This document shows, piece by piece, positions 4,119 through 44,936 of a DNA stretch of 44,936 nucleotides. The stretch is from a virus. Position 1 is the first letter of the stretch. Each line of letters opens with the position of its first letter. The notes beneath the pieces were generated by a model that saw only the letters and a program-made list of their open reading frames with translations, was not told where the DNA came from and made no database searches. The stretch is taken from positions 1 through 44,936 of the IMG/VR virus record IMGVR_UViG_3300045988_042992; one strand, given 5' to 3'. Position numbers and translations under genes: made by a program.

Positions 4119-4170
4119 AAAAAGGCCGTCCCACATGGGGCGGCCATGTCACAATATAAAGGAGGATACA

Positions 4171-7718: not shown

Positions 7719-7812
7719 CGCCAGCCCTCCTTTGCTTATATGGTACAAAAAAATCGCCCATTCAGATGGCCTGTAAAAGGTCTCTGAATGGGCGATCATG
7801 TCCAAGTGAGGT

Positions 7813-8052
7813 CTATTGATTTGTCAGCGCGTCAACAATTTTCGACAATGCCCTGCGGCGGTTTCTCTTGACGCTTTCCGGCGAGACGTGAAGCGCGTTG
7901 GAAACTTGTATATAAGACTTTCGGCGGATATCGCACAAAATAATGCACGATTCCTCATCTTCCGGCAAATCGAAAGATTGGACAAATTCCAAAGCTCTCT
8001 TAGGAGCCATGCTGGAAATGTAGTACCGAACGGCTTTGCGACTATTATCCAT
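7813..8052 (-). CDS. Small sigma-70 region-4-like HTH protein
   Basis: ...SYIQVSNALHVSPESVKRNRRRALSKIVDAL resembles sigma region 4 / LuxR-type HTH. The start is uncertain because no clear SD is present. Confidence 0.45.
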   Translation of the reverse strand: MDNSRKAVRYYISSMAPKRALEFVQSFDLPEDEESCIILCDIRRKSYIQVSNALHVSPESVKRNRRRALSKIVDALTNQ

Positions 8053-8138
8053 GGCAAAATAAAAGCCGTGGGCGTGCGGGCGCAATGCGCGGGCAGGGAG
8101 CGCGGCGTTACGTCACTCCCCGCCGTCCAGAATGTTTC

Positions 8139-8825: not shown

Positions 8826-9291
8826 TGTTGTTGTCCTCCTCTCCCGGCAGCTTGTTCGCCGCCGTGTCCTCGGTGTGTACTTTCAACTTTTTCAGCAGCG
8901 CCTGGAGGAAACCAGGCACCGGTGCACCAATGGCAGACACATTTTCCAGGATGGACAGCAGCTCGTTGATCACCAGCCAGATAATGACGATGCTGGCAAA
9001 CAGGAACTCCACCGGCCAGTCCCAGCCCAGGGTGTCGGCTCCGTAGCGCAGCAGCCAGTCTACCACAGCGGCCACGGCGACGATGACCAGGTATCCAACC
9101 TTCTTCAGGATGCCCCGCAGGCCCACCCGGGAGGACAGCTCCCCGGCGTTCCATGCCTTGGTCATGCCCGTGGCGTAGTCCAGCAGCATCACCACCACCA
9201 GAACCAGCACCGGTACCAGCAGCTGCACCCCGTAGGCACACAGCGCCCCCAGGGCGGCCGCCATAGCGGCCTTGATCGCGTTTTCTTTCAT
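8818..9291 (-). CDS. Holin (phage_holin_4/TcdE-like, about 157 aa)
   Basis: GGAG-ATG start at 9291. It has multiple TM segments and the ...VINELLSILENVSAIGAPVPGFL motif typical of this holin family. Confidence 0.8.
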   Translation of the reverse strand: MKENAIKAAMAAALGALCAYGVQLLVPVLVLVVVMLLDYATGMTKAWNAGELSSRVGLRGILKKVGYLVIVAVAAVVDWLLRYGADTLGWDWPVEFLFASIVIIWLVINELLSILENVSAIGAPVPGFLQALLKKLKVHTEDTAANKLPGEEDNNNE

Positions 9292-24466: not shown

Positions 24467-26122
24467 TTAAAATGGCCGCTTGAACACTTCCACTTTGCCG
24501 CCCACTCGCATCCGGATTTCGTTCTCAAGCAGGGACAGGGCATCCGGTGCGTCATCGTGCGGCACTTTGCCGCTCCGGGTGTAAGTGGTGACTTCCTTCA
24601 TGAAATTGAAGTACTGGCTGCCCCGCTTATAGGTGGACGGATGCTTGAACCAGAAGTGTTTCTTGATGTTGTCGGACGCAAATTCAATTCGCGTCTGTTT
24701 GTTGGAAATGGTCCTTTTTGTACGTATTCCAACGCTATATCCACGCTGCCGGACGATTTCCGCAACGTCTCTGGCGTAATACATGCCCGCGTTGTTGCTT
24801 TCAAACAGCGCGTCCGCAACGCGGTTGTCGATCAGGCACCTGGCGCATTCTGGCTTTGTGACGTCCGGTGGAGAATCATCAAACACCACGTCCACGATAT
24901 ACACTTCATCCCCGTACAGCGCCGCAACGGGAAGGGCGGTGCTGTCGCTTCCGCTTTCTGCGGTGTCGCACACGGCAATAACGGCGTCCGGATCACGGCC
25001 TGTGGGGAGTTCAAAGAAATAATTCAGCTCATCCTTGTTAAAAAGCAGCCCCTTTGCTTCAAAGGGCTGCTGCTGGAATTCACTCTCAAATTGCTCCGCG
25101 CTCAAAAGCTCCCTCTGTTCGCGGAAATACGCTGTAGTAAACACCTTTTTCCCGTCCCGTTCGTATTCGTAGTTACTCTCGTCCGTAACGGGGTCAAGTG
25201 CTGGTATTTCAATGGCTTTCCACGCCCAGCCGCCTTTTTGTGCTTCCTCTTGGAGGTGGCCGATGGGGTCATACAGGGAATATCGGGTCCCCGTGGCGAC
25301 AATGGGGGTTCCCTCAATGGCTCGGCCCAGGATATCGCCGGATATGATCTCCCACTTATCGTCCAGTCTCTGGCGGTTTTTTGCTTCCTCGCGTCCCTCT
25401 ACGCAGTCATCCAGATATAGGACGTTCGTAGCCTCCGACAAGCCCACTTGTCTTGCGTCAATGGATCGGCACATGACTGTGGGGAAGCGGGATTTTGACC
25501 GCAGATTCAGTATCTTTGTGTCCGCATTGGTCTGCACCAGCGGAGAATTGGGAAAAACGTCATAGAATAAATATTCATTTGGCGTTTGCAGATACTCCAG
25601 GCACCCGGAATAAAAGCTTTTCACCAGATCGTCCCCCGTCCCTTCCATTAGGGACGACTTGTCCGGTTCCCGCCCAGACAGAAAATTGACGAAATTGATG
25701 CCCAACTGGGATTTCCCGGCGCGTTTTGGCATCGACAGCGTCAACAGCCGCAGTTTTCCGTCCAAAACCTCCTGATACGCCGCCACAATAGGCCGCAGAT
25801 AATGCCGCCTAGGTGCGTAGAACTTCTTCTCCGGCTTGCGGTTCATCTCGATATACAGCAGAAACGTGTCGAAATCGTGCGGTGCGTCAAAGCACATGGC
25901 CTTTTTGTACACGTCAAACAGAGAATCCGCCGCCTTTGCGTTGCATGTGTGCAGGGCCGCAGAACTCATTTTTCGCAAATCCTTGCTCAGCTCATGGGCC
26001 AGGGTGAAATCATCCGGTTCCAGTTGTCGGCATACGGACAGAAGGTCCATGTACGGCACGTGGTCGAACGGATTCCGCGCAATATGCTGTTTTATGCGTT
26101 CTGATAGTTTTGCGTAGTCCAT
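24467..26122 (-). CDS. terL: Terminase large subunit
   Basis: Walker A-like MPKRAGKS, Walker B VLYLDD, and nuclease motifs CDTAESG and HDDAPDALS. Confidence 0.9.
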   Translation of the reverse strand: MDYAKLSERIKQHIARNPFDHVPYMDLLSVCRQLEPDDFTLAHELSKDLRKMSSAALHTCNAKAADSLFDVYKKAMCFDAPHDFDTFLLYIEMNRKPEKKFYAPRRHYLRPIVAAYQEVLDGKLRLLTLSMPKRAGKSQLGINFVNFLSGREPDKSSLMEGTGDDLVKSFYSGCLEYLQTPNEYLFYDVFPNSPLVQTNADTKILNLRSKSRFPTVMCRSIDARQVGLSEATNVLYLDDCVEGREEAKNRQRLDDKWEIISGDILGRAIEGTPIVATGTRYSLYDPIGHLQEEAQKGGWAWKAIEIPALDPVTDESNYEYERDGKKVFTTAYFREQRELLSAEQFESEFQQQPFEAKGLLFNKDELNYFFELPTGRDPDAVIAVCDTAESGSDSTALPVAALYGDEVYIVDVVFDDSPPDVTKPECARCLIDNRVADALFESNNAGMYYARDVAEIVRQRGYSVGIRTKRTISNKQTRIEFASDNIKKHFWFKHPSTYKRGSQYFNFMKEVTTYTRSGKVPHDDAPDALSLLENEIRMRVGGKVEVFKRPF

Positions 26123-26138
26123 GCGGCCTCCATTTTTG

Positions 26139-26176
26139 CATAAAAAGAGACGGGTTCCCGAAAGAACTCGTCTCTT
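26139..26176 (-). terminator. Intrinsic terminator after the lipoprotein gene, immediately upstream of terL
   Basis: The minus strand reads AAGAGACGaGTTCtttcggGAACcCGTCTCTT followed by TTTAT. Confidence 0.7.
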
Positions 26177-26194
26177 CTATTTTGCTTGTATAGG

Positions 26195-26659
26195 TTACTC
26201 GCCCACGTTGATTGTGATCGTGTCAGAGGTCTCGTTGAAATCAGCGGTCAGTTTGAACTCAAGCGTTTTGACCTCGGAAATGTCGGACAGGCCAGCCTTT
26301 TCAAGGTAGAAAAACATGGAATAATTGATGTTTTTCCCGCCCTGCATTGTTGCGGGGACTCCGCCCAGATATTGGACCATCGTATCATTCACAGAGCTGT
26401 CCTGCGGATATACCGTAATTTCCTGGTCCGTCTTGTTCTCGAATTTCATCTGGATGTAGCAAACACCCGGCACGGAATCCAGTTCCGTGATGCCCAGGTA
26501 CGTTGCCTTGAACGTCTGGCCGTCATACACGACCTTCTCAACGGTCTGACCTCCGGTCTCGCCGTCATCCGGTTGGTCCACGGTGCCTCCGCACCCGACC
26601 ATAGCAATTGCCGCCACCATGATGGCAAGCAGCACTGCCCACACTCTCTTTGCTCTCAT
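26195..26659 (-). CDS. Lipoprotein (signal peptide + lipobox MVGC)
   Basis: MRAKRVWAVLLAIMVAAIAMVGC-GG. GGAGG lies 9 nt upstream of the ATG at 26659. The mature domain is beta-rich. Confidence 0.8.
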   Translation of the reverse strand: MRAKRVWAVLLAIMVAAIAMVGCGGTVDQPDDGETGGQTVEKVVYDGQTFKATYLGITELDSVPGVCYIQMKFENKTDQEITVYPQDSSVNDTMVQYLGGVPATMQGGKNINYSMFFYLEKAGLSDISEVKTLEFKLTADFNETSDTITINVGE

Positions 26660-26704
26660 TTTCCTTTTCCTCCACATTTATTTTCTCCCGGGTGGCCGGG
26701 GGAA

Positions 26705-27277
26705 TTACTTCATCTCGCCGGATTCGTATTCCTTAACACGCCGGTAGAATGTGTTCGGCTTCAGTCCCAAATGACCCATAGCCGCTTTGGCGGTGATATG
26801 GCCCGATTTCCAAAGGTCGTATTCCTGTTCAAACTTCTTCCTGTCCACCGGGATAGCCTGACGGCCTACATACTCGCCGCGCTCCTTTTTCGCATCGATG
26901 CCCTCTTTCTGCCGGGATTTGATATAATCACGCTCCAGCTGGCTCACTGCCGCAAATACCGTCAGCATAAATTTGCCCGCCGGGGTGGTGGTATCTATCT
27001 TTTCCTTCTGTGATTCAAATTGTACACCCTTCTCTGTCAGTTGGTCAACAAGGTTTAGCAAATCGCGCGTATTTCTTGCAAACCGGCTGATCTCGCTCAC
27101 AACCACGGTATCGCCCTCGCGCACAAACGCCAACAGCTTCTTCAGTTCTGGCCGGTCAGTATTTTTGCCGCTACACTTGTCTACAAACAGCTTCTCCGCG
27201 CCGAGCGCTTCCATCGTGATTTCCTGCCTTGCTGTGTTTTGCTCTTTCGTTGACACACGGACGTATCCTACTTTCAT
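26705..27277 (-). CDS. Small serine recombinase (resolvase/invertase family)
   Basis: MKVGYVRVSTKEQ (catalytic Ser motif), ...VVSEISRFARNTRDLL..., and a C-terminal HTH ...HLGLKPNTFYRRVKEYE. SD AAAGGAGGG. Confidence 0.9.
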   Translation of the reverse strand: MKVGYVRVSTKEQNTARQEITMEALGAEKLFVDKCSGKNTDRPELKKLLAFVREGDTVVVSEISRFARNTRDLLNLVDQLTEKGVQFESQKEKIDTTTPAGKFMLTVFAAVSQLERDYIKSRQKEGIDAKKERGEYVGRQAIPVDRKKFEQEYDLWKSGHITAKAAMGHLGLKPNTFYRRVKEYESGEMK

Positions 27278-27299
27278 TTTTCGTCCCTCCTTTGCCGTG

Positions 27300-27328
27300 A
27301 TTATATCACGTCTGCAAGGGTGTGTCAA
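27300..27328 (-). promoter_or_regulatory. Perfect consensus promoter TTGACA-17-TATAAT with extended -10 and an A-rich UP-like tract, for recombinase+lipoprotein
   Basis: Minus-strand TTGACA (27323-27328) and TATAAT (27300-27305), with TG at -15/-14. A second overlapping TTGACA lies 8 bp upstream. Confidence 0.75.
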
Positions 27329-27458
27329 TATGTCAATTTCAGTTTATGCAATGCGCAGGTATTTTTTTCTCTTTTGTTTTTTGCGGGCATTTTGAGGCTT
27401 ACCCGGCCCCGCTCCCGCCCACGATATCCCCCACCCCCGCCCGGCCACGCCTCCCGCG

Positions 27459-27507
27459 CATGGCAAAAGGTATACCCATGCGCAACACCGGCGGCGCGTT
27501 GCGCATG
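27459..27507. promoter_or_regulatory. Overlapping palindromes built on GCGCATG half-sites
   Basis: GCGCATGG-N12-CCATGCGC (27459-27486) and CATGCGCAAC-N11-GTTGCGCATG (27477-27507). These are candidate protein-binding (res-like or operator) sites. Confidence 0.45.
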
Positions 27508-27554
27508 CCTTGCAAATAATCCATTGCAATATTGCAAAATTGCTAATTAAGGTA

Positions 27555-27583
27555 TTGACATACTGCCCCCATCGTGATATTAT
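27555..27583 (+). promoter_or_regulatory. Consensus promoter TTGACA-17-TATTAT with extended -10 for the four-gene cassette
   Basis: TTGACA at 27555-27560, TATTAT at 27578-27583, TG at 27575-27576. It is followed by a roughly 140-nt GC-rich leader. Confidence 0.75.
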
Positions 27584-27731
27584 ATCAGCGTAGAGAGAGG
27601 GCCGCGCCGGTTACAGCCTACCAAGCCCCGGAGCAGCCCCCACACCAGACCAGAGGCCCAGCGCGTACAGTGTACCACGCCCGGGCTACCTGGTCAAGAG
27701 ATAGGGCCAGCAAAAGGCCGGGAGGTATATT

Positions 27732-28127
27732 ATGATGGATATCAATTATAGCGCGGTGCGTGAGCAGATCAAGGCCACGCCAGCCCGCAGCGCATGGCGG
27801 CGCGGTGTCTCCGCTTACGCGCTGGAGCTGCTGGACAGCGTAGCCGGTCGCGCGGCTTATGAGGGTCACGGCCCCGAGGATGTCGCCCAGCTCCGCAAGT
27901 GGATGTTGGACGGGGCCAGGGACTGGAGCGAGTACAGTTACGGCGGTTGCTCCCTGGTGTATGACGGAGACATTGCCGAGCGGCTATGCACACCCTCCGA
28001 GCTGCGCAAGACTCGCGGCGGCGAGCGCAACCCGAATTGTCGGGAGTCCTGGCTGGATGTCCAGGCCCGCGCCCTGTATTGCGCGGCCTGCGCTGTCGTC
28101 ACCGCTTGCAAGGAGGTGCGGCAATGA
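27732..28127 (+). CDS. Hypothetical protein (131 aa), cassette gene 1
   Basis: ORF track; SD GGGAGG. ...SAWRRGVSAYALELLD...GGCSLVYDGDIAERLCTPSEL... is weakly remembered from conjugative-element cargo. Confidence 0.65.
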   Translation: MMDINYSAVREQIKATPARSAWRRGVSAYALELLDSVAGRAAYEGHGPEDVAQLRKWMLDGARDWSEYSYGGCSLVYDGDIAERLCTPSELRKTRGGERNPNCRESWLDVQARALYCAACAVVTACKEVRQ

Positions 28128-28399
28128 GCGCTAACGAGATTGCCGCCAAGGTGCAAGAGCTTAGGGAGCTGCGCCGCATGGCTGACGAGCTGTCCGCAGA
28201 GATTGACAGCTTGCAAGACTCCATCAAGCAGCACATGGACGCCGCCGGGGTTGATACCCTGGCGGGCCTGGATTACAAGATCACCTACAAGGCCGTTACA
28301 TCGGCCCGGCTGGACTCTAAGGCCCTCAAGGCCGATCAGCCAGATCTGTACGCCAAGTACACCAAGCAGACCACGGCGCGCCGGTTTTGCCTCGTCTGA
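28124..28399 (+). CDS. Hypothetical coiled-coil protein (91 aa), cassette gene 2
   Basis: AAGGAGG start at 28124, with ATGA overlap with gene 1. Confidence 0.6.
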   Translation: MSANEIAAKVQELRELRRMADELSAEIDSLQDSIKQHMDAAGVDTLAGLDYKITYKAVTSARLDSKALKADQPDLYAKYTKQTTARRFCLV

Positions 28400-28411
28400 G
28401 GGGGTGCCGGA

Positions 28412-28486
28412 TTGCTATCTATCTTGTTACTGATCATCTGGTTTCCGCTGGCCGTCCTGGCCGACGTGGTCCGCAAGTCCAAGTAA
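28412..28486 (+). CDS. Possible 24-aa hydrophobic peptide (TTG start)
   Basis: Hand translation gives (M)LSILLLIIWFPLAVLADVVRKSK after GAGGGGG. Confidence 0.3.
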   Translation: MLSILLLIIWFPLAVLADVVRKSK

Positions 28487-28530
28487 TCAACCATCTGACA
28501 GGGGCAGAGCCCCGGAAAGGATATGTCACC

Positions 28531-28728
28531 ATGACATATGTAGACGCTATCAAGGCCGGATATAAGACGGCAGACACCAAGTACCAGCGCGGATATGTTA
28601 GCCGCCTGGCAGACCCCGACGCGCAGCCGGTACACGCTGCCGGGGGCAATCGCAAGGGCCAGCTGTATGTGCTGCTCCCCTGCTATTGCAGCACTCAATA
28701 CTGCATCCGGCAGTATCTCTATAGATGA
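28531..28728 (+). CDS. Hypothetical protein (65 aa), cassette gene 4
   Basis: MTYVDAIKAGYKTADTKYQRGYVSRL...; followed by a terminator. Confidence 0.55.
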   Translation: MTYVDAIKAGYKTADTKYQRGYVSRLADPDAQPVHAAGGNRKGQLYVLLPCYCSTQYCIRQYLYR

Positions 28729-28744
28729 CCTTCCAGGCAACAGG

Positions 28745-28779
28745 CCGCCCCGGAGCTATTCCGGGGCGGTTATTTTTTT
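28745..28779 (+). terminator. Rho-independent terminator of the four-gene cassette
   Basis: CCGCCCCGGA-gctat-TCCGGGGCGG followed by TTATTTTTTT. A second hairpin, CCCGCAAA-ggcg-TTTTGCGGG, follows at about 28785-28806. Confidence 0.85.
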
Positions 28780-29144
28780 GCCCTGCCCGCAAAGGCGTTT
28801 TGCGGGCTTTTGGCGTTGGGTGGTATTGTGGGATACCGCCGCCAATGCAACATGCTGTGCGCGGCGTTTTAGCGTGGTTTGCGGGGGTGTTGTGGTATAG
28901 TGTGTTTGCGCGGTGTGTGGCTGCCCCGTTTTTCCCGCCTTGATCGTGGCGGCGTGGGCGCGTCCGGGCCCGTTGGATATGGCACCGCCGCAAATCGTAT
29001 TGACAGGCCCCGCGATGCTGCGGTGCTGGGGCATAATCCCGGGCGAGACAGTGCGCGCCGTCCGGCTCAGGGCGCGGCTGGCAGAAAAGGCGGGGAGTTG
29101 GTCAAGCGGCTGTGCGCATGCGCTCAATCTGGCGGATTCGCGCC

Positions 29145-29282
29145 GAAAGTCGCTGCGAAAGTCGCCCGGTTTTGCGTGAAAGTCGCTGATAGTCGCTAAA
29201 CCGTGTATAAACCCGGGAAAAACGTTGCCCCTACTCCGAAAGTTGCTGAATAGTCGCTAAGAAAATCAGGTTTCATAGTCGC
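29145..29282. repeat. Cluster of seven (G)AAAGTCGC / ATAGTCGC direct repeats at the 3' end of terS; pac-site or TerS-binding candidate
   Basis: GAAAGTCGC at 29145, 29157 and 29178; GAAAGTTGC at 29238; ATAGTCGC at 29189, 29250 and 29275. Two composite units, CGAAAGTyGCTGA(A)TAGTCGCTAA, lie about 60 bp apart. Confidence 0.5.
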
Positions 29283-29916
29283 AAGACGCCGCTTCGATGT
29301 ACTTCTTCTGAAGTTCTTCGGGCGGCGTTTCTGTTCCAAGGGGATTGTTGGGCGTGAGAACGACCTCTTGTTTGTCGGTCATGCCGAAAAAGTTCTTCGC
29401 GCGGAAAATGTACGTAATCTGCGGAATTTTCCCCTGTGAGACCAGTTTTGCGTCGATTCCGGCCAGAATTTGTTTGGCTTTTTTTATCATGCCAGCCCTC
29501 ACGGGGCCCAACGATCCCTTTTGCCAGTCCAAAACCGTTTGAGTTACGGCCCCGAGAGCGAGGCACATATCCTCCACCGTGGGGATTTGTCCTTCCTCTA
29601 CACACTGTTGGAAATAGTCGTTAAGCTTATCGGCGCATTCCTCATCAGTTTTTACGCACGACCTCTTAAAGTATTGGAATGATTCCCTAACGATTTGTGA
29701 AATCTCTTCATTTGTTGCAGTACACCTGGCCGTAACAGATGCTGATGCCGCTCCCCTGGTGTGTGAGATGGCATTCTCTCCGCGCTCTTGTACGATGATC
29801 TTGCGGATAGTCGGCTCGGACAGCCCGTTTTGTTTTGCCACAGTCGCTATATGCTTACATGCGTCATAGTCGGCAAGGACTTGCTCTCTCATAGCTTGCG
29901 TGATTTTACTTGCCAT
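29266..29916 (-). CDS. terS: Terminase small subunit
   Basis: N-terminal HTH (...ATVAKQNGLSEPTIRKII). The central ...IPTVEDMCLALGAVTQTVLDWQKG... and ...YIFRAKNFFGMTDKQE are typical of Terminase_2-type small subunits. Confidence 0.8.
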   Translation of the reverse strand: MASKITQAMREQVLADYDACKHIATVAKQNGLSEPTIRKIIVQERGENAISHTRGAASASVTARCTATNEEISQIVRESFQYFKRSCVKTDEECADKLNDYFQQCVEEGQIPTVEDMCLALGAVTQTVLDWQKGSLGPVRAGMIKKAKQILAGIDAKLVSQGKIPQITYIFRAKNFFGMTDKQEVVLTPNNPLGTETPPEELQKKYIEAASCDYET

Positions 29917-30154
29917 CTATGTCACCTTCTTCCCGTCTTAACATATTTGGGGTGATTTCAAAAAATCCGTCACACTCCGGGCACCTGACATACGCATCTG
30001 CCGGTCGGACAATCATTCTACCGGTCATGTAGCCGCGCTCAACATTTTGAACGTATTGAACTTCGCTTCTCGGATTGAACTCAAATATGCACCCGCACGT
30101 TGGGCATTCTGCCCGGGCAAATTTATCTTGTTTCCCGTGCTTAATGATTTTCAT
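29906..30154 (-). CDS. Zinc-ribbon protein (82 aa)
   Basis: CPTCGC ... CPEC; SD AGGAGGAG. It overlaps the terS start by 11 nt. Confidence 0.65.
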   Translation of the reverse strand: MKIIKHGKQDKFARAECPTCGCIFEFNPRSEVQYVQNVERGYMTGRMIVRPADAYVRCPECDGFFEITPNMLRREEGDIDGK

Positions 30155-30335: not shown

Positions 30336-30409
30336 TGGCAAAGGCGAGTGGAATCGAACCACTATCTTCGGTTTTGGAGACCGCCGCGTTACCATTACAC
30401 CACGCCCTT
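30336..30409 (-). tRNA. tRNA-Trp (anticodon CCA)
   Basis: Hand fold: AAGGGCG-TG-GTGT-AATGGTA-ACGC-G-GCGGT-CTCCAAA-ACCGA-AGAT-AGTGG-TTCGATT-CCACT-CGCCTTT-G-CCA. It closely parallels bacterial tRNA-Trp. Confidence 0.85.
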
Positions 30410-30502
30410 TGGAACGGGCGGCTGGAGTCGAACCAGCGACCAAGGGTATTCAATCGCATATCCCTTCACGCGATAAAGCTCTGCCGACTGAGCTACGCCC
30501 GC
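30410..30502 (-). ncRNA. Aberrant 93-nt tRNA-like element (normal acceptor, D and T arms; anticodon arm replaced by a possible pseudoknot)
   Basis: GCGGGCG-TA-GCTCAGTCGGCAGAGC ... GCTGG-TTCGACT-CCAGC-CGCCCGT-T-CCA. The internal 40 nt can form ATCGC/GCGAT interleaved with AAGGG/CCCTT. Confidence 0.5.
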
Positions 30503-30969
30503 ATTTGCTCGGCTTGCCGCTTAGATTGTCACTCCTCATGCGCGCTTGAAGCCCCGCAAGCATTTCAAGCGGCCACACATTGGCTATCGCAAGGGGGACG
30601 CATCCCCACGGCAGTTTTCAGCGGCCATTGTCATTTGCATGTGAGCCATGCCGGACGGTCTCACATTGTCCGGGCGCTACCCGGCCTCTGGTACCACACC
30701 GCGCTGCGCCTTTTCATCAGCCACGCACTGTTTTTGCGGATTAACTGTCCGCCGCTATCCGGATAGCTTGTGCGTACTTAACTTCTCGCGCTTCCTCGCC
30801 CGCTTGTGTGGTTGGTGCGGCATTGCAGTCCTGCCCTGCTTTAGCGCTTCAGGGGAAGCCCCCGTCACTCGCTGTGGTCTCCCACTACGGGGTACCTATG
30901 CCGCATATATGTCCGGTTTCCACGGTTACCCCACTTGTTTATACTCCGTTGGTGACTCCGTTTAGAGTT
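30503..30969 (-). ncRNA. Candidate large structured non-coding RNA between phage tRNAs (ROOL/GOLLD-class hypothesis)
   Basis: This 467 nt has no credible ORF and is flanked by co-oriented tRNAs. It is dense in GC-rich hairpins (e.g. GGGG-gctt-CCCC, GCGGA-cagttaa-TCCGC, CCGGG-tagcg-CCCGG, GGGGA-tgcg-TCCCC, GCTTGAA...TTCAAGC). Confidence 0.45.
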
Positions 30970-31044
30970 TGGCGCAGGCGGCTGGAGTCGAACCAGCACA
31001 TACGGGAGTCAAAGTCCCGTGCCTTACCTTTTGGCTACACCCGC
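30970..31044 (-). tRNA. tRNA-Gln (anticodon TTG)
   Basis: Hand fold: GCGGGTG-TA-GCC-AAAAGGTAA-GGC-A-CGGGA-CTTTGAC-TCCCG-TATGT-GCTGG-TTCGACT-CCAGC-CGCCTGC-G-CCA. The D-arm is Gln-like. Confidence 0.88.
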
Positions 31045-33031: not shown

Positions 33032-33211
33032 TCATTCTCCTTTCTCCAGCATATCAGCCGCCGCTCTCAAATCATCCGGCAGCATAATAGGTACTTCGTA
33101 GATATTTGCATCAGCCCATTCTGCATATTCTCGCAGGGTTTCGGCAATTTCTTTATGTGATGGCTTCACGGGGCCTCCTTTCACACCGCCACACGTCTCG
33201 TTGATGTTCAT
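33032..33211 (-). CDS. Small hypothetical protein (59 aa from ATG, or 45 aa from an internal GTG with a strong SD)
   Basis: Hand translation gives MNINETCGGVKGGPVKPSHKEIAETLREYAEWADANIYEVPIMLPDDLRAAADMLEKGE. ATGA overlap with the upstream ORF. Confidence 0.45.
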   Translation of the reverse strand: MNINETCGGVKGGPVKPSHKEIAETLREYAEWADANIYEVPIMLPDDLRAAADMLEKGE

Positions 33212-34587
33212 GTAATCGCTCCTCCAAACCTTAATTTGGTCACGGCAATCGGAAACTCCTCAATCTCGCTTGCCCAGATTGCCGTACCGGCACCGTGTAT
33301 ATTCTCCCAGCACAGTGGGAAGCCGCCGATGCCGTCGAACAGACTGCCGAGCGTTGCGCCCTCCGGCAGATAGGCCGCCATACGGCCCAACATCCAGCGC
33401 CAGAACGGCAGCGCGATGCTGTTGCCGAGTGCCTTGTACCGTGCGCTGTCGGAGGTCTTGCGCTTCTTGCCGGTGCTGTCGGTGTAGTCGCCGATGTCCG
33501 TCCAGCCGTCCGGAAATCCCTGCAGCCGTTCGCATTCCAGCGGCGTCAATCTACGCACCACCATGTTCTGCCCCGGGTATGTCTCCGCGTCCTCCCGGTA
33601 CGCACAGCCAGCATTTGCCCGCAGTGCGTGGCTCACGTCCTCACAAACGACTGCGTGGCTCACTTTACTTTCTCCTGCGCGTAATGCGTTCTTCGTTTCG
33701 CTTTCTGCCCAGTTTTCTTCCATCGCACTTTTGGGCTGGTATAAAATTGCTTGAGCATCGCGCATGGTGTTCAACGTTTGGCTGACTTCCTCCGCCATAA
33801 CACTGGCTTCGTTGGCTTGTCCGTTGCCGATACCGTATGCCACCAGCGGCACTTGATTGCCACCTGTTCCCATACGGGCTTGCAACGACGGGACCAGCTC
33901 TCCGCATTCGCGGATGACATCACAGGCGTGTGTCATGTCCAGCACCACCACTGACGGAGTTTGGTTCGTCCCGCTGGTTACCGCCGCCCGCGTGGGCGTA
34001 AAAATCGTCTGATCGTTCCCCTTGCCCAGCGTTCCGCTTTTCTCCGTCTGCACTAACGCGCCTTTTCCTCCCCCGTCACAGCTCCCCCTGATGCGGACTG
34101 CATACGATGTTGGGGCCTCTGTCGGCGCAGGGGCTTCCGTCCGCTCTTGCGGTGAGGCTCCTTGCGACTGCCGGATTAAAGCCGCTTTCAGCCGCTTCGG
34201 CAAATCCTTCCCCCGCCGCTCCGCTCTCCGCAATATCCCCTGACACGCTTTTGCGGTCAAAGAGTATTTCGGATGCGGTGTCTCCTCCAAAATCTGCGAC
34301 AACCGAGATACGACGACGGCGTTGGGGCACTCCCCAGTATTGCGCGTCGTGTGTTCGCCACGCCACGCTCCATCGTCCTCCCACTTCATCGTGGTATCCC
34401 CCCCAGGTAGGCCAGCCCTTTTCAGGCACTTCAATACCGGGGGCTTCCGGCTCGACGATTTTGATGATCTCTTCGAGCACGGCTGCGAAGTCTTTTCCTT
34501 TGTTGCTGCTAAAGGCTCCGGCCACGTTTTCCCACGCCATGTATCTCGGGCGAATAAGCTCTCCTGCCCTGCCAAGTCGTTTGTCAT
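33208..34587 (-). CDS. C5 DNA methyltransferase, frame B: TRD-like region, motifs IX and X, then motifs I-II at the C-terminus (true N-terminus uncertain)
   Basis: TLQARMGTGGNQVPLV; RRLTPLECERLQGFPDGWT; YKALGNSIALP; then LGSLFDGIGGFPL...WASEIEEFPIAV at the extreme C-terminus. Confidence 0.7.
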   Translation of the reverse strand: MTNDLAGQESLFARDTWRGKTWPEPLAATKEKTSQPCSKRSSKSSSRKPPVLKCLKRAGLPGGDTTMKWEDDGAWRGEHTTRNTGECPNAVVVSRLSQILEETPHPKYSLTAKACQGILRRAERRGKDLPKRLKAALIRQSQGASPQERTEAPAPTEAPTSYAVRIRGSCDGGGKGALVQTEKSGTLGKGNDQTIFTPTRAAVTSGTNQTPSVVVLDMTHACDVIRECGELVPSLQARMGTGGNQVPLVAYGIGNGQANEASVMAEEVSQTLNTMRDAQAILYQPKSAMEENWAESETKNALRAGESKVSHAVVCEDVSHALRANAGCAYREDAETYPGQNMVVRRLTPLECERLQGFPDGWTDIGDYTDSTGKKRKTSDSARYKALGNSIALPFWRWMLGRMAAYLPEGATLGSLFDGIGGFPLCWENIHGAGTAIWASEIEEFPIAVTKLRFGGAIT

Positions 34588-34768
34588 GCTCCCGCATCTC
34601 CTTTATCACTCTGATCTGCTCCATAAACAGACCGCTTCGCGCACCTGCGAGACCGGCACGCTTTCCCGCGATGCTCAGGTCCTGACACGGGCTTCCGCCC
34701 GTCACGCACCACACCGGCTCGATGGTGGCTCCGTCGAGCTTTGTAATATCACCGAGGTGTTGCATCAT
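34076..34768 (-). CDS. C5 DNA methyltransferase, frame A: motifs IV, VI and VIII only (no motif I)
   Basis: GGAGGTGGTGA-ATG start. GGSPCQDLSIAG; MAWENVAGAF; YWGVPQRRRRISVVADFGG. It overlaps frame B by 512 nt. Confidence 0.7.
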   Translation of the reverse strand: MMQHLGDITKLDGATIEPVWCVTGGSPCQDLSIAGKRAGLAGARSGLFMEQIRVIKEMREHDKRLGRAGELIRPRYMAWENVAGAFSSNKGKDFAAVLEEIIKIVEPEAPGIEVPEKGWPTWGGYHDEVGGRWSVAWRTHDAQYWGVPQRRRRISVVADFGGDTASEILFDRKSVSGDIAESGAAGEGFAEAAESGFNPAVARSLTARADGSPCADRGPNIVCSPHQGEL

Positions 34769-34821
34769 TCACCACCTCCATACTCCGATGATCTCGTCAA
34801 TGAGGGATTCTTGGGCGTAGA

Positions 34822-37323
34822 TCATTTTGTTTCCTCCATCAGGTCGAAAAGGGAAATGTTCATGTCTTCCTGCTCGTACTCCTTGAGATAGCCCACAGCA
34901 TCGCGGAAATACCCGTTGTTCAACTCGATGGTATACCCGCGCCGCCCGGCCTTCATCGCCTCCAGGGCGACAGTGCCAAGTCCGCCGAAGGGGTCCAGCA
35001 CCAATTCCCCGGGATTGCTGTAGCGATTGATAAGTCTGTCTACAATATCCAACTGGAGCGGGCAAACGTGCATTTGCTGGCGGCGCTGGCTCTGCGTGGT
35101 GTTAAGGGTGCGCATCCGGTTGATATCGTCCCACACCTGGTCTGTCCAACTCCCAGGCGCTGCCACCATGAACGTGGCGGGCAGTTTGTCGTCTGCGTCC
35201 AGTTCCTTCGCCATGCGGACATGTTCCGCGTAATCGTACACGGTCCCTCGGCTGTACTTCCGGTATGCCGCCTGAATCTTCCCGGTGTCCATGGCCATGA
35301 TCTCTTCTTTGGTCATGAGCCGGTCGCCAGATGAGCGCCAGAAACCGTGCGCGTCGATCTGCCATTGTGCCCGGGTGTATTCGTCCTTGCTCTTTACCAC
35401 CCTTTCATCTGCGTAAGCCTTGCTGCGGTCCGTAGGCAGCTTGCGGAACAGAAGAATGTATTCTGGGCAGCCCACCCCCATCTTTGAACCGTCCTTGCAC
35501 TGCTCTGTCCAGCCCAGCCGGTATGTCTGGTTGTTCTCTCGCACCACGTCCGTCACAACGGTAATCATGCCGAAATACGCAAACCCATGCTGCATGTAAT
35601 GCCGGATGCACATCGCGTGGAACGGCTCCATAGTGGGCATGCCCATGCCCGTGGCGTTGCCGAACAGAACCCGGTCCTTTACGTGGCAGCAGAACACACG
35701 CCCCGGCTTCAGTACGCGCAAGAGGTTTGGAGTCAGGTAGTCCATCTGCTCAAAGAATCTCCGTGTGTCCTCATTGTGGCCGAAATCGTTGTAACTGGGC
35801 GTGTACTCATAGTGGTTGGAAAACGGGATACTGGTCACAATAAGGTCCACGCTGTTTTCCGCCATCTTCGCCGTTTCCTCTACGCAGTCGTTATTCACGG
35901 CGATGAAATTCTTTCCCTTGATTTCCACTCTTTCAACTCCTATGCTCCGGCTCATTTTCTCCGTCTGGGCCTCGCCGGAAAGCCCATATTTCTGGACGAT
36001 CTCCCGCATTCGTGCCTGCATGTCGTTGTGTTGCTTCCACTTCTGCATCAGGACACGGTAGATGGGGTCCTCCGCTTCTGTGTAGATGATGTCGATAATC
36101 ACCTGTTCCGTCTGCAGGAACCTGTAAATTCGGTGGATTGCCTGAATGAAATCGTTGAACTCATAATCAATACCGATGAAGATAGCCCGGTGGCAATGTC
36201 TCTGGAAATTGCACCCGGAGCCAGATAGGCTCTTTTTCGTTGCAAACAAGCGTGTTCGGCCTTCCGAAAAATCAATTACCCGGCGCTCCCGCTCGTCGTA
36301 ATCCATGCTGCCGTAGATGTCCACGGTTTCCGGCAGGGATTTCTTTATTTCGTGGCGTTCCGCTTCCAGATCGTGCCACAAGATGAAATGTGCATCCTGG
36401 TCGCTGTCTACGATTCCTTTGGCTACGGCAACGCGCCGCTGAATGCTGTCACGCTTTTCCCGCGCGGCCTCCGCCAGAGATGTTGCCGCGTCGTTCATCA
36501 TTTTGTATTGCCCGTCCCGGTCCGTTTCCGTGCCGTAGTCGTCCGGAACGATATGCACCCGGACGTCCAACGGGGGAAGGTCATACCCGGTATCGTCATA
36601 TCCTAAATCGGAGGGCTTCCCCACGAACAGCGCCCACGAAGATACCCAGAGCCAGAATTCATCTTCTTTGTGCGGGTACAGGGTAAGGTTGTTTGCCTTG
36701 GTGCTGTCGCGCTGGAAAAAACGTGTCAGGGCCTGCCCCGTGTCCATGATCTCCAGATATCCAGCATAGTGGATAAGCTCCTTGTACCGATTGGGCGACG
36801 GTGTGGCCGTGCAGACCAGTTTATACTTCACGCCCCGGAACTTGGGCAGGAAGGTTTGATATGTCTTGCTCCCGAAACTGCGCAGCACGGACGCTTCATC
36901 CAGCGCTACAGCTGTGAACTGCGTTGGGTCGATGTCTCCGTCACGGACGCGCTCATAGTTTGTCATGGCGATCTCAGCGTCTGTTCCGGCCAAGTCCTGC
37001 ATCTTGGTGATGTATACCGGGGCCGGGTATCCCAAGATAGTTTCCGCGTCCCTGGCAAACTCTTGGCGGACACCCAACGGAAGGACGATCAACGCCCGTC
37101 CGCCGTCGTGCTTTACGGCCTGGTGACAGAACTCTATTTCTTGCACCGTCTTTCCGAGGCCGAAGGATTGGAATAAGGCCCGGTGCCCGCCGCGAAGCGC
37201 CCAAATCACAGAGTCCCGCTGGTGCGGTTTCAAGTTCGGGTTGATCTCCCTCGGGTCAACGCAAAACCCGCTCTCTTTGGCCAATACGATCTTGGATTTC
37301 AGAAATTCCAGATATGTTTCCAT
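34822..37323 (-). CDS. SNF2-family helicase fused to a beta-class N6A/N4C DNA methyltransferase (833 aa)
   Basis: Helicase motifs GLGKT, ALDEAS and QAIHRIYR. Methylase motif IV-like TSIPF precedes motif I DPFGGLGT. Confidence 0.85.
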   Translation of the reverse strand: METYLEFLKSKIVLAKESGFCVDPREINPNLKPHQRDSVIWALRGGHRALFQSFGLGKTVQEIEFCHQAVKHDGGRALIVLPLGVRQEFARDAETILGYPAPVYITKMQDLAGTDAEIAMTNYERVRDGDIDPTQFTAVALDEASVLRSFGSKTYQTFLPKFRGVKYKLVCTATPSPNRYKELIHYAGYLEIMDTGQALTRFFQRDSTKANNLTLYPHKEDEFWLWVSSWALFVGKPSDLGYDDTGYDLPPLDVRVHIVPDDYGTETDRDGQYKMMNDAATSLAEAAREKRDSIQRRVAVAKGIVDSDQDAHFILWHDLEAERHEIKKSLPETVDIYGSMDYDERERRVIDFSEGRTRLFATKKSLSGSGCNFQRHCHRAIFIGIDYEFNDFIQAIHRIYRFLQTEQVIIDIIYTEAEDPIYRVLMQKWKQHNDMQARMREIVQKYGLSGEAQTEKMSRSIGVERVEIKGKNFIAVNNDCVEETAKMAENSVDLIVTSIPFSNHYEYTPSYNDFGHNEDTRRFFEQMDYLTPNLLRVLKPGRVFCCHVKDRVLFGNATGMGMPTMEPFHAMCIRHYMQHGFAYFGMITVVTDVVRENNQTYRLGWTEQCKDGSKMGVGCPEYILLFRKLPTDRSKAYADERVVKSKDEYTRAQWQIDAHGFWRSSGDRLMTKEEIMAMDTGKIQAAYRKYSRGTVYDYAEHVRMAKELDADDKLPATFMVAAPGSWTDQVWDDINRMRTLNTTQSQRRQQMHVCPLQLDIVDRLINRYSNPGELVLDPFGGLGTVALEAMKAGRRGYTIELNNGYFRDAVGYLKEYEQEDMNISLFDLMEETK

Positions 37324-39525: not shown

Positions 39526-40290
39526 TCAGTCCTCCTGCGTCCAGCCGCCGGTGTCGGAGTTGTACTTCCAGCGAGGCTCTGGCTTTGCGGGCAGTTCGGT
39601 CTCTTGCACCTCGTCCTCCCATCGGCCCTGGTTCAGCCATGTGGCCGGATAGGGGATGTACTGGCCGTTATCGCGCTGCCATTGCGCACTGTGCTTCTGG
39701 GCCTCGATGGCCTTGAGTACGACGTCCAACGGCGGCTTCGCCTTGTCGAACGCCTTCCGCGCAGCCGCTTTCCCGGTTTTCCTCGGATACGCCTGCCAGA
39801 ACACGTCGAATGCGCTTGCGCAGTTCGGATTGGATTTGGATTTGGATTTGGATTCGGATTCGGATTGGATTAAGGCCGCAGATTGCCGCGACTCGCCGCA
39901 GATTGCGGCAACTTGCCGCAGATTGCCGCGACTCGCCGCAGATTGTTGCAAAACTGTGTTTTCCGGAGGCTCGGGGAACTTCGGCTTGCAATCTCTGATA
40001 CGCTGATGCTTGACCCACCCGGGGAACAAAAAGTAGGGCCTCCCGTCCACTGTGTAGAGGGACACGCAGCCTTTTGCCGCCAATTCTTGGAGCGCAGCAT
40101 CGATATCTTTGATGGATAACCTCTCCCGGAACGGGAAAACACGTCCTTTTATGATAGCGGGGCGGGCATCTCCGCGCCCCGCATCATCCGCTTGCGTAAT
40201 CAATCCAACCCAAAGCCGAAACTCAAAATCCGAAAGAGCTGCGATTTTTTCTGAGTCGCATAAGCTTTCCTTTATGATTCTATTCGGCAT
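39526..40290 (-). CDS. Replisome organizer / replication initiator with an internal origin
   Basis: The N-terminus MPNRIIKESLCDSEKIAALSDFEFRLWVGLITQADDAGRGDARP is typical of the phage replisome organizer N-terminal domain. The iterons are embedded mid-gene. Confidence 0.75.
   Translation of the reverse strand: MPNRIIKESLCDSEKIAALSDFEFRLWVGLITQADDAGRGDARPAIIKGRVFPFRERLSIKDIDAALQELAAKGCVSLYTVDGRPYFLFPGWVKHQRIRDCKPKFPEPPENTVLQQSAASRGNLRQVAAICGESRQSAALIQSESESKSKSKSNPNCASAFDVFWQAYPRKTGKAAARKAFDKAKPPLDVVLKAIEAQKHSAQWQRDNGQYIPYPATWLNQGRWEDEVQETELPAKPEPRWKYNSDTGGWTQED
39827..39871. repeat. Eight tandem GGATT(T/C) units
   Basis: Read directly. They encode the SESESKSKSKSN linker on the minus strand. 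Confidence 0.85.
39876..39955. repeat. Four iterons CCGCAGATTG(C/T) at exact 20-bp spacing (candidate ori)
   Basis: Copies start at 39876, 39896, 39916 and 39936, inside the initiator gene. Confidence 0.7.
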
Positions 40291-44619: not shown

Positions 44620-44936
44620 TACTCCGACTCCATAATCTTTCCGTTTCGCAGGGTATACCATGTTTCCGGCTTGATAATCTCGCCGTCAACACGGACCAGA
44701 CGCGCGTCTACGATGGCCCCGCATTTGTACTCGGACAGCACAAGCCAGTTTCCGGCCTTTCCCATAGCTTTGCTTTCAGGCCCCCAGGCGGTGGCCAAGC
44801 AATCGTTCCCGAGTGCTTTTGCGCCGCCATATTGCCCTGTCACGGTCGCCGTGCCCCACGCTCCAGATGCGGCGGCGTTGCCCCTCATTCCAGATGCGGC
44901 GGCGTTGCCACTCTCCCCAGATGCGGCGGCGTTGCC
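44619..44936 (-). CDS. Repeat protein, 3' part (same gene as 1-672; 44796-44936 duplicates 1-141)
   Basis: ORF-track protein ...GNAAASGAWGTATVTGQYGG...VDGEIIKPETWYTLRNGKIMESE. The frame stays open upstream through the repeats to the window end. Confidence 0.8.
   Translation of the reverse strand, partial: GNAAASGESGNAAASGMRGNAAASGAWGTATVTGQYGGAKALGNDCLATAWGPESKAMGKAGNWLVLSEYKCGAIVDARLVRVDGEIIKPETWYTLRNGKIMESE
44796..44936. repeat. Terminal overlap copy 2 (identical to 1-141)
   Basis: Same 141-nt string as the window start. Confidence 0.9.

Follow-up and report, generated by a model that had tools for sequence, protein, structure and literature searches.

In the 44.9-kb window analysed here (the whole stretch of 44,936 nucleotides), the small and large terminase genes, terS and terL, are separated by a gap of 3143 bp (26123-29265; Table 1), confirming the separation of about 3.1 kb given in a preliminary description of this DNA. 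TerL additionally gives a weak profile match to the terminase nuclease domain of the T7-like PhiV-1, and terS has an HTH at its N-terminus, with a GP3_package match (5e-5) that is below threshold. The gap is occupied by two divergent transcription units and, as had also been described, by approximately 490 nt of non-coding DNA. Unit 1, on the minus strand, is an operon of a serine recombinase gene followed by that of a lipoprotein candidate, and unit 2, on the plus strand, is a cassette of four small ORFs behind a leader; each unit has a consensus promoter. This phage has a separate tyrosine integrase (4135-5253, phrog_1, 3e-44), so that the serine recombinase does not fill that role; a Sak-like annealing protein and an exonuclease are encoded as well.

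Table 1. Features of the terS-terL interval and its borders, in window coordinates.
Feature	Position	Strand	Description
terL (large terminase)	24467-26122	-	downstream border of the locus; phrog_38 match, 9e-48
Operon 1 intrinsic terminator	26139-26176	-	hairpin 26145-26176, 13-bp stem, T-run; ends ~17 nt before the terL ATG
Lipoprotein candidate, 160 aa	26195-26677	-	signal peptide and lipobox AMVG/C, read from the sequence
Serine recombinase, 190 aa	26705-27277	-	Gin/resolvase family; PF00239, 8e-45; phrog_125 'DNA invertase', 1e-63
P_rec	27300-27328	-	predicted promoter, TTGACA-17-TGnTATAAT, 12/12 match
Divergent control region	27329-27554	unstranded	conserved linker, then allele-specific segment
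P_cas	27555-27583	+	predicted promoter, TTGACA-17-TGnTATTAT, 11/12 match
Leader	27590-27731	+	~140 nt; putative helix P1 and hairpin P3
c131, 131 aa	27732-28127	+	all-alpha; very large unnamed family
c91, 91 aa	28124-28399	+	long N-terminal helix; phrog_434, 8e-15
c24, 24 aa	28412-28486	+	hydrophobic peptide, TTG start; ORF conserved
c65, 65 aa	28531-28728	+	Cys-containing; in 13-14 of 30 close relatives
Cassette terminator	28743-28771	+	strong; 13 bp, 9 GC, T-run
Second cassette hairpin	28786-28813	+	weaker; read by eye, not called by the terminator scan
Spacer	28814-29142	unstranded	fast-evolving, non-coding
Repeat array GCGACT(T/A)T	29143-29290	-	at/after the terS 3' end; pac-site-like candidate
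terS (small terminase)	29266-29916	-	upstream border of the locus; phrog_606, 1e-9

A search for promoter-like sites returned 10, compared with 3.2 ± 1.8 in shuffled sequences, and only P_rec and P_cas match at 11 or 12 of 12 positions; from this consensus match alone, both are predicted to be near-consensus host sigma-A promoters. P_rec is followed within approximately 20 nt by a Shine-Dalgarno sequence (AGGAGGG) and an ATG. The perfect promoter of the recombinase-lipoprotein operon and its terminator, 17 nt short of terL, are as previously claimed, and this terminator is a conserved junction found before terL in 30/30 close relatives (the 30 near-identical relatives used for all module counts), whatever stands upstream. 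The divergent four-gene cassette has its own promoter and a 140-nt leader, as had been described, but the second of its tandem terminators is the weaker one; the term self-contained, applied earlier to the whole island, needs qualifying. The spacer beyond is present in 13/30 close relatives and is 77-90% identical where terL is 97-99% identical; across 28780-29140 in 13 relatives, substitutions show no 3-periodicity (58/49/60) and indels are mostly of 1-2 nt.

The 3' half of the cassette leader is conserved in 59 loci, independently of the gene that follows. P1 pairs 27648-27653 with 27690-27695, and P3 pairs 27705-27708 with 27716-27719, directly 5' of the Shine-Dalgarno sequence (27720-27725). 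P1 reads GACCAG/CTGGTC in 27 distinct sequences and GCCAAC/GTTGGC in 16, amounting to three compensatory pairs, and P3 has one compensatory variant. The fold is not exceptionally stable relative to shuffles (z = -0.44), RNAalifold did not recover it, and the leader has no match in Rfam. The conserved leader is probably structured.

The preliminary description saw in the gap an island that splits terminase genes normally adjacent to one another, and that its serine recombinase could mobilise or resolve. Own promoters, terminators and a recombinase gene, a G+C content of 0.60 over 27500-29000 (approximately 0.52 in the flanks) and c91 relatives in integrative elements would all suit such a mobile island. 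Its relatives, however, leave this explanation largely refuted. Among 67-68 terL-anchored loci that hold both terS and terL (TerL identity 67-99%), every gap measures 2770-4662 bp, and an empty or adjacent arrangement occurs in 0/67. The gap flanks have no direct or inverted repeats, and the content is exchanged part by part, with breaks at the gene boundaries inside it, instead of en bloc. Furthermore, the same arrangement recurs in distant phages, where c131 homologues of 45-60% identity again lie between a GP3_package terS and terL, beside a Resolvase gene, although TerL is only 24-37% identical and the capsid type differs. The supposed mobiliser is itself the best-conserved occupant of the gap, present in 62/67 terL-anchored loci and always co-directional with terL (absent from 5/67); when the recombinase serves as the anchor, 64/67 evaluable loci have terL ≤3 kb downstream.

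What changes between relatives is the content. The presence or absence of modules assorts among the 30 close relatives, with short junctions kept in 26-30 of 30, and comparison with MT835537 and MT836871 places the breakpoints at gene boundaries, where alleles of the recombinase, envelope proteins and genes of the cassette are swapped. The block is thus accessory, as had been proposed, and its genes vary between relatives; uniformity among relatives, which had been named as evidence against this, is seen in architecture and position but not in content. A fixed accessory hotspot, rather than a mobile island, is very probably the correct description. Such an arrangement resembles lambdoid morons and the defence hotspots of P2/P4 (PMC9122126) in having autonomous promoter-gene-terminator units between essential late genes, at a fixed position, with content that varies between relatives and envelope proteins as typical cargo. 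It differs from them in the place of the slot, between terS and terL, in never being empty, and in holding two divergent units, with a serine recombinase almost always included. The suggestion of moron behaviour holds for the anatomy, with host-type promoters and terminators of its own, and we infer that the timing of expression may follow. A further parallel is found in Ca. Heliusvirales vSUBFAM7, Bacillota gut prophages with genus-specific variable genes between TerS and TerL (bioRxiv 10.64898/2026.05.11.724261); the passages of that preprint consulted describe these as metabolic genes and report no recombinase-centred architecture, and the phage lineage is a different one. The markers of Ca. 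Heliusvirales include DNA polymerase I (PMC11283538), and none was found among the annotated ORFs of the window.

The preliminary identification of a small serine recombinase is correct. Among solved structures, Mu Gin is the nearest (3e-31), the Ser nucleophile and Arg residues are retained, and the D67 equivalent is Ser (ISRFAR) in all alleles of ~190 aa, while an alternative allele has the composition Resolvase+Recombinase (PF00239+PF07508). The likeness to Mu Gin, P1 Cin and Hin (nearest in sequence, phage-borne, ~190 aa), together with the best PHROG match, 'DNA invertase', raises the idea of a switch in which a Gin-like recombinase flips the cassette or promoter region to give phase-variable expression, and across lineages the cassette does occur in both orientations (33 loci have c91 on the strand opposite to the terminase genes, and 24 have it on theirs; L055 noted). 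This is very unlikely: orientation is lineage-specific, uniform in 30/30 close relatives and in 27/28 of the 77-84% group, candidate inverted repeats flanking the cassette score 21 against 18.1 ± 2.6 (a value reached by 55/300 shuffles), and the palindrome described below has no second copy in the genome. Unlike the invertase systems, the locus has neither inverted recombination sites nor orientation polymorphism, and the gene adjoins terminase genes, not tail-fibre genes.

The control region consists of a G+C-rich linker (27360-27445), present in 28/30 close relatives, and an allele-specific segment (27455-27554). The latter contains inverted repeats, TGCGCA/TTGCAA motifs and a perfect palindrome, TTGCAATATTGCAA (27524-27537), of which the genome has one copy. 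Among the 30 close relatives, 27460-27640 co-occurs with this recombinase allele (16/16 with the allele, 0/14 without), and recombinase, P_rec, operator region, P_cas and 5' leader are always inherited together (16/16, 14/14), across the conserved linker; the alternative allele has palindromes of its own at both promoters. Plain physical proximity (~200 bp) could explain this linkage. In Tn3/gamma-delta, res lies between the divergent genes tnpA and tnpR, and TnpR bound there represses both. Similarly, a small serine recombinase gene is here divergent from a second unit, allele-specific palindromes and repeats between them overlap both promoters, and the domain order is Resolvase, then C-terminal HTH; the locus differs in the absence of a transposase, terminal repeats and a second res copy, and in the Ser at the D67 equivalent. 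By analogy, the recombinase probably binds the shared control region, most likely at its allele-specific palindromes and repeats in the style of resolvase and res, and such binding would regulate both units; we propose only tentatively that it acts as regulator of this region.

The divergence of the recombinase from a promoter driving an array of small, promoterless, exchangeable ORFs, and the linkage of its allele to the promoter-proximal region, could also be taken for an integron-like platform, in which the recombinase captures or exchanges cassettes site-specifically downstream of P_cas. We consider this highly improbable, since no repeated attC-like element stands between the cassettes, the junctions are ordinary RBS/intergenic sequence, the breakpoints fit homologous exchange at conserved linkers, and the phage has its Sak-like annealing protein. 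Sak-like proteins are said, in work by De Paepe et al. of 2014, to drive mosaicism via relaxed homologous recombination.

That almost every relative has a recombinase directly upstream of terL points to a role in the life cycle that the word accessory leaves unexplained; a placement between terS and terL that hardly varies calls for one. Expressed immediately from a host promoter, the recombinase might circularise the injected genome or resolve multimers in the manner of Cre/loxP, with the neighbouring cassette giving end-protection and anti-defence at the same moment. The dense, lineage-specific repeat array at the terS end is as expected for a terS recognition site: 6/11 plus-strand copies of AGTCGC in the window lie within 130 bp, the array is kept in 30/30 close relatives, it has equivalents in the 81% group and in L055, and the 67-70% group has a different repeat, GCAGAAAG, at the terS end. 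With terS weakly of the P22 gp3 type and the single recombinase-linked palindrome approximately 1.7 kb from the array, recombinase and putative site would lie just downstream of pac, and so in the terminal redundancy or near the DNA end of headful virions. A point against such a role is that small resolvases and invertases as a rule act on supercoiled DNA and depend on accessory sites; large serine recombinases, which the alternative alleles resemble in truncated form, need no supercoiling. In P1, loxP lies near pac. The precedent is circularisation by Cre on entry of the linear DNA, flanked by lox sites, of P1 heads (PMC2841073). Both loci place a non-integrase site-specific recombinase near packaging genes, expressed (here by prediction) from host promoters, but Cre is a tyrosine recombinase, and the present protein is, by its sequence, a serine recombinase. 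The weak resemblance of TerL to T7-like terminases, the relatives without a recombinase, and the Sak-like protein and exonuclease, which could circularise a redundant genome themselves, make this establishment role unlikely.

Returning to the accessory hotspot, the first protein of its cassette, c131, has 5,927 homologue clusters and no match in Pfam, PHROG or PADLOC, and no PDB or BFVD entry matches the fold of its model (pLDDT 73). Its homologues mostly adjoin terminase genes of other phages, including an unrelated TerL in Collinsella. Some family members carry a C-terminal AcrIC5 domain (PF22147, 1.7e-21; PMC7913775), a fusion seen in relatives and not in this window, and the cassette of L114 has a weak AcrIC5-like ORF. 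c91, with a structure model of low confidence, matches phrog_434, the C-terminal part of RecE-like exonucleases, as well as phrog_6244/1956 and, weakly, Gp157 and Mu-Gam. It has 483 homologue clusters, some in small integrative elements with tyrosine integrases; the earlier comparison to conjugative-element cargo holds loosely in this respect, but no conjugation genes were seen. c24 is the most conserved cassette member (27/30 close relatives), its ORF being intact in 31 relatives, in 19 distinct DNA versions with conservative changes only, and c65 has no family in Pfam, PHROG or PADLOC. The c131-AcrIC5 fusions, the near-consensus promoter and the small variable ORFs point toward anti-defence, and it is quite possible, if short of probable, that the cassette contains at least one such gene; among the window proteins, no match to a characterised anti-defence or exclusion protein was found, PADLOC giving none. 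acr-aca loci occupy fixed positions in structural modules, for example in Mu-like phages of Pseudomonas. They share with this cassette a host-type promoter, short, fast-exchanged ORFs and a constant place among morphogenesis genes, whereas the window encodes no known Acr, and the operon includes no Aca-type HTH gene; the divergent recombinase is the sole linked DNA-binding protein.

The lipoprotein candidate, also correctly recognised before, has only 11 homologue clusters and no match in Pfam, PHROG or PADLOC. In relatives, unrelated signal-anchored, lipoprotein or multi-TM proteins fill this slot instead, and 66/91 distinct ORFs between recombinase and terL have an N-terminal hydrophobic segment. 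Ltp of TP-J34 is a superinfection-exclusion lipoprotein, and a comparison with it had been drawn; both are prophage-encoded lipoproteins with a constitutive-looking promoter, but the comparison fails because the 160-aa protein lacks the defining Ltp domain and any other similarity. Its candidate functions are superinfection exclusion and surface modification.

Taken as a whole, the reading that we favour, and consider rather probable, is that a large clade of temperate gut phages shares, between terS and terL, a hypervariable accessory locus whose position is fixed. Its two divergent transcription units, which each carry a terminator and a near-consensus sigma-A promoter, would express, on one side, a Gin/resolvase-family recombinase and, behind it, an envelope-targeted protein that can be interchanged (here a lipoprotein) and, on the other, a leader followed by interchangeable small proteins from a pool of genes that phages have in common with integrative elements; these proteins are candidates for anti-defence or establishment. 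The terminators would shield terL and the late genes from both accessory promoters, so that late transcription can arrive at terL only by reading through the locus. Gene-sized modules would be traded among relatives by recombination at short conserved junctions, within a slot that is old and fixed and is found in hundreds of related phages.

The interval that separates terL from terS in this phage is best interpreted as an accessory locus of fixed position and hypervariable content, with two units under host-type promoters. One unit would serve as a slot for envelope proteins and the other as a slot for small cytoplasmic proteins, with the whole locus organised around a serine recombinase. The minus-strand unit comprises a 190-aa serine recombinase, followed by a 160-aa lipoprotein candidate and a hairpin with a T-run, 17 nt before the terL ATG. 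The plus-strand unit, the cassette, consists of a ~140-nt leader and four ORFs (c131, c91, c24 and c65, named for their lengths), followed by one strong terminator. This anatomy had been set out in a preliminary description, and all of its features are present, except that the second of its cassette terminators is a weaker hairpin that the terminator scan did not call. Within 5 kb, the divergent pair predicted to drive these units gives the two strongest promoter matches, promoters and terminators being called here by pattern. Beyond the cassette, a stretch towards terS is non-coding, as substitutions in 13 relatives follow no codon period and most indels are of 1-2 nt.

Coordinates of the interval and of the phage features discussed in the text
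Feature	Position	Strand	Remarks
Tyrosine integrase	4135-5253		phrog_1 at 3e-44
terL	24467-26122	-	
terS-terL interval	26123-29265		
Recombinase promoter	27328..27300	-	12/12, TG
G+C-rich linker	27360-27445		
Cassette promoter	27555..27583	+	11/12, TG
c131	27732-28127	+	131 aa
c91	28124-28399	+	91 aa
c24	28412-28486	+	24 aa, hydrophobic
c65	28531-28728	+	65 aa
Non-coding stretch	28780-29140		
terS	29266-29916	-	
Four-Cys zinc-ribbon protein	29906-30154	-	82 aa; phrog_2834 at 1e-5; 11-nt overlap with terS start
tRNA-Trp, tRNA-Thr, tRNA-Gln	30336-31044	-	three tRNAs, just upstream of terS; tRNA-Thr a long (93-nt) call
Two large genes with DNA methyltransferase domains	33208-37323	-	one fused to helicase-like region (833 aa, phrog_16 at 9e-124)
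Replication initiator	39526-40290		tandem repeats at 39824-39945

The window begins and ends with the same 141 nt (1-141 and 44796-44936), indicating a complete, circularly assembled phage genome of ~44.8 kb. This end overlap is itself part of a tandem repeat with a 27-nt unit (10.3 copies, 88% matches) that runs across the junction (68-345 and 44861-44936). The gene content is that of a temperate, sipho-like phage, with Xre-type regulators, a replication initiator, an HNH endonuclease, a NinB/Orf-like recombination mediator, a Sak-like annealing protein, a late activator (phrog_248) and two DNA methyltransferase-containing proteins; the latter lie outside the locus and may serve anti-restriction self-methylation. 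As the phage has its own tyrosine integrase, the serine recombinase of the interval is not its integrase. The minus strand carries terS, the interval, terL and the portal gene, and the zinc-ribbon gene, whose product is conserved among close relatives (50-93% identity), is probably translated together with terS. The tRNA region itself varies among relatives, as seen from drops in coverage. The repeats within the initiator gene (TTGGAT x7 and a 20-nt unit x3.5) look like an origin with iterons embedded in that gene.

The notion that the interval is an island inserted between two normally adjacent genes predicts related phages in which terS and terL adjoin. A TerL search of IMG/VR returned 80 loci, and in every one that holds both genes (TerL identity 67-99%) the terS-terL distance is 2770-4662 bp; the genes are adjacent in 0/67 relatives, and the insertion model fails. 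Likewise, a mobile island or integrative element should be flanked by att-type repeats, and neither the block nor the cassette proved to be bordered by att-like or inverted repeats beyond short chance-level matches, an alignment test against shuffles also being negative. Without an empty site in 67 relatives or flanking repeats, the mobile-island model is contradicted, and the suggestion that the cassette is conjugative-element cargo found no conjugation genes behind it in the flanks examined. The serine recombinase, in turn, lies within the gap in 62/67 loci (30/30, 28/28 and 4/9 by TerL identity class, using iterative profile searches), always co-directional with terL. Approached from the recombinase, with the best 80 of 548 confirmed IMG/VR stretches, terL is <3 kb downstream in 64/67 evaluable loci and terS <5 kb upstream in 38/57. 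Furthermore, c131 homologues (45-60% identity) occupy the same place, flanked by a gp3-type terS and a terL and adjoining a Resolvase gene, in distant phages with TerL just 24-37% identical and a capsid protein of another family, and in Collinsella prophages a c131 homologue adjoins an unrelated TerL/portal pair. Judged from these sequence comparisons, the arrangement is old and position-fixed, not an insertion. For annotation, this means that a recombinase-bearing terS-terL gap is no evidence of recent insertion or misassembly.

Hotspots and morons are well-known phenomena, and the moron character initially proposed is matched in anatomy, both units having predicted promoters of their own (11-12/12 consensus) and intrinsic terminators. 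A moron is also cleanly absent from some relatives; here the whole interval is absent in 0/67, though single genes come and go. Among the 30 near-identical relatives, the interval is a mosaic of gene-sized modules with short conserved junctions between them, namely the terminator before terL, the recombinase/lipoprotein junction, the G+C-rich linker, the 3' leader, the 24-aa ORF, the cassette terminator and the repeat array after terS. Breakpoints relative to two GenBank contigs (MT835537 and MT836871) coincide with gene boundaries. The G+C-rich linker was considered as a deep motif and discarded, as it is found only in the groups with 81-99% TerL identity. At least two unrelated recombinase allele classes segregate in the close group, the 190-aa Gin-like form and a form of ~250-260 aa with Resolvase and Recombinase domains; more distant relatives carry further alleles of 54-58% and ~30% identity. 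In MT835537 an additional 1.4 kb (7723-9056) separates the terminator from terL and encodes an 83-aa RHH-like and a Bro-N/antirepressor-like protein, the RHH call and the antirepressor assignment being made by reading the sequence. The same contig combines the window's recombinase allele with a 270-aa TM/OB-fold protein in place of the lipoprotein. A 240-aa FtsK/SpoIIIE-family ATPase (PF01580 at 2e-34) is encoded next to terS on the cassette strand in 9/9 relatives with TerL identity of 67-75% (ATPase loci L067-L081, L090, L091, L093 and L110, in the gap next to terS).

Several contigs end between recombinase and cassette: the end of MT835537 lies at 27379 and the start of MT836871 at 27448, and L045, L048 and L078 stop ~180-200 nt upstream of the recombinase. 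These ends probably arise where the assembly graph forks, at a conserved linker between alternative alleles, or from low coverage of G+C-rich sequence; a physical DNA end at this place is a possible alternative.

The recombinase matches PF00239 at 8e-45 and phrog_125 at 1e-63, and its closest solved structure is Mu Gin (3e-31). It has the Resolvase domain, Ser nucleophile and Arg residues typical of small serine recombinases, and its YxRVST and RxxR motifs align with those of Gin and gamma-delta resolvase; a C-terminal HTH is weakly matched by HTH_28 (3e-3). The Asp that precedes RxxR in gamma-delta (D67) is replaced by Ser (ISRFAR, residues ~62-68) in all ~48 alleles of ~190 aa at the locus and retained in the ~250-aa alleles. 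The constancy of this Ser across ~45% sequence divergence marks it as characteristic of the subfamily and not as a sign of decay. The recombinase allele, its promoter and 27460-27640, which holds operator-like repeats, the cassette promoter and the 5' leader, are co-inherited (16/16 present, 14/14 absent), and the linker between the recombinase and 27460-27640 is common to 28/30 relatives; the other modules are reassorted. Allele-specific palindromes and TGCGCA/TTGCAA repeats are located between the two promoters (27329-27554). In the window's allele the palindrome TTGCAATATTGCAA lies just upstream of the cassette promoter, with TGCGCA and TTGCAA repeats, and has no second copy in the genome; the alternative recombinase allele comes with different perfect palindromes at both its promoters.

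Recombinase and candidate control region appear to share the anatomy of the Tn3/gamma-delta resolvase at res, and by this analogy the recombinase likely binds the shared control region. Tn3-type transposons differ in having a transposase and terminal inverted repeats, neither of which belongs to this locus; no transposase was found among the interval ORFs or in the relatives' gaps examined. The perfect linkage of alleles suggests that a serine recombinase does here what Aca repressors or TnpR do in other systems; proximity alone could also account for the linkage.

Two further roles for the enzyme have to be weighed. An invertase switch of the Gin/Hin type would need inverted recombination sites flanking a segment, and the best inverted match was no better than in shuffles. 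Cassette orientation differs between lineages (33 loci vs 24); within lineages it is constant in the assemblies, with 30/30 and 27/28 loci in one orientation and no polymorphism among near-identical genomes, and this role is not supported. Integrons, which also pair a recombinase with a divergent, promoter-driven cassette array, resemble the interval in architecture only, as they use a tyrosine IntI and an attC site per cassette, whereas the enzyme here is a serine recombinase and no repeated element was found between the cassette ORFs. Mobile island, invertase switch and integron-like capture each conflict with the outcome of a particular test.

The gene after the recombinase behaves as an interchangeable envelope-protein slot. 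The 160-aa protein has a signal peptide and lipobox (MRAKRVWAVLLAIMVAAIAMVG immediately before the C), read from its sequence, in line with the comparison to Ltp-type exclusion lipoproteins made earlier. That likeness stops short of the Ltp repeat domain, since no Pfam, PHROG or PADLOC family matched at E <= 0.01 save two weak PHROGs of unknown function. In relatives the gene is swapped for others encoding unrelated proteins, among them small multi-TM proteins, lipoproteins, a 244-aa signal-anchored protein and a TM protein whose OB fold is tRNA_anti-like, and an N-terminal signal or membrane segment occurs in 66 of the 91 distinct ORFs.

The cassette slot probably includes anti-defence functions, the lead being AcrIC5 matches in relatives. 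The family of c131 numbers 5,927 clusters and has no Pfam, PHROG or PADLOC model; its moderately confident all-alpha structure model had no match in PDB or BFVD at E <= 0.001, and profiles of c131 and c91 found no matches among PDB sequences. Some c131 members carry a C-terminal AcrIC5 domain (1.7e-21; 76.5 bits vs a cut-off of 27), and in one relative (L114) a weak AcrIC5-like ORF is a separate cassette gene. The window itself has no homologue of a validated Acr, PADLOC defence-system models matched none of the proteins, and the cassette encodes no HTH protein that could be an Aca repressor, the divergent recombinase being the one with an HTH. In some distant relatives a small ORF upstream of the recombinase, with no family match, is by eye a possible HTH protein. 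Outside phage contexts, c131 homologues lie beside a caspase-domain protein (Collinsella sp. An7; L122 7911-9062) and an IS110 transposase (Angelakisella; L126 11513-12883), which shows that the family extends beyond the vicinity of terminase genes. c91, whose structure model was too poor for a fold search, is similar to the C-terminal portion of RecE-like exonuclease families and, at a weak level, to Gp157 and Gam; it is also present in small integrative elements with tyrosine integrases. The c24 reading frame is unbroken in 31 relatives.

The 3' leader is conserved in 59 loci regardless of the gene behind it. Three compensatory pairs between two sequence states, the only two that exist, support a helix by a hand-anchored count of its arms, and a separate hairpin abuts the SD. 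On a MAFFT alignment, a gap shifted by one column made RNAalifold miss the helix, and the single-sequence fold is not thermodynamically exceptional. Rfam, at gathering and E-value thresholds, gave for leader and spacer no known RNA, its matches being tRNAs outside the region and two at chance level.

Of the 11 plus-strand AGTCGC copies in the window, six cluster in a 130-bp segment at the end of terS. Relatives have similar arrays there, or in distant clades a different repeat, and the array looks like a candidate terS recognition (pac) site. The similarity of terS to the gp3 type is weak; as to packaging class, a single-sequence PDB search with TerL was empty and its profile weakly matched a T7-like nuclease domain. 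The main rival to an accessory locus is a Cre/lox-like establishment role tied to this neighbouring pac-like array. In its full form, which is considered unlikely, recombinase, recombination site, structured leader and cassette would be one "establishment module" kept beside the packaging start site. Headful redundancy would place the module at the DNA ends of early headfuls, where host RNA polymerase could transcribe it immediately. The recombinase would circularise the genome by site-specific recombination, the cassette would deliver end-protection and anti-CRISPR or anti-restriction proteins, and the recombinase would then shut down both promoters. If true, the module would unite a counterpart of P1 Cre-lox, built on a serine recombinase, with an acr-aca circuit, and it would be widespread in phages of gut Clostridia.

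Variable genes between TerS and TerL are already noted for another gut-phage lineage in a preprint (bioRxiv 10.64898/2026.05.11.724261). A limited literature search found no description of a near-obligate serine recombinase at this address, of its allele-linked control region or of a c131 family with AcrIC5 fusions. To our knowledge, very few anti-defence or exclusion genes are known from phages of gut Clostridia. The accessory locus offers a ready-made place to mine for them, with a fixed terS-terL address, a small serine recombinase upstream of terL as marker and hundreds of natural cassette combinations, among them c131, a family of ~5,900 clusters that is sometimes fused to an anti-CRISPR domain.
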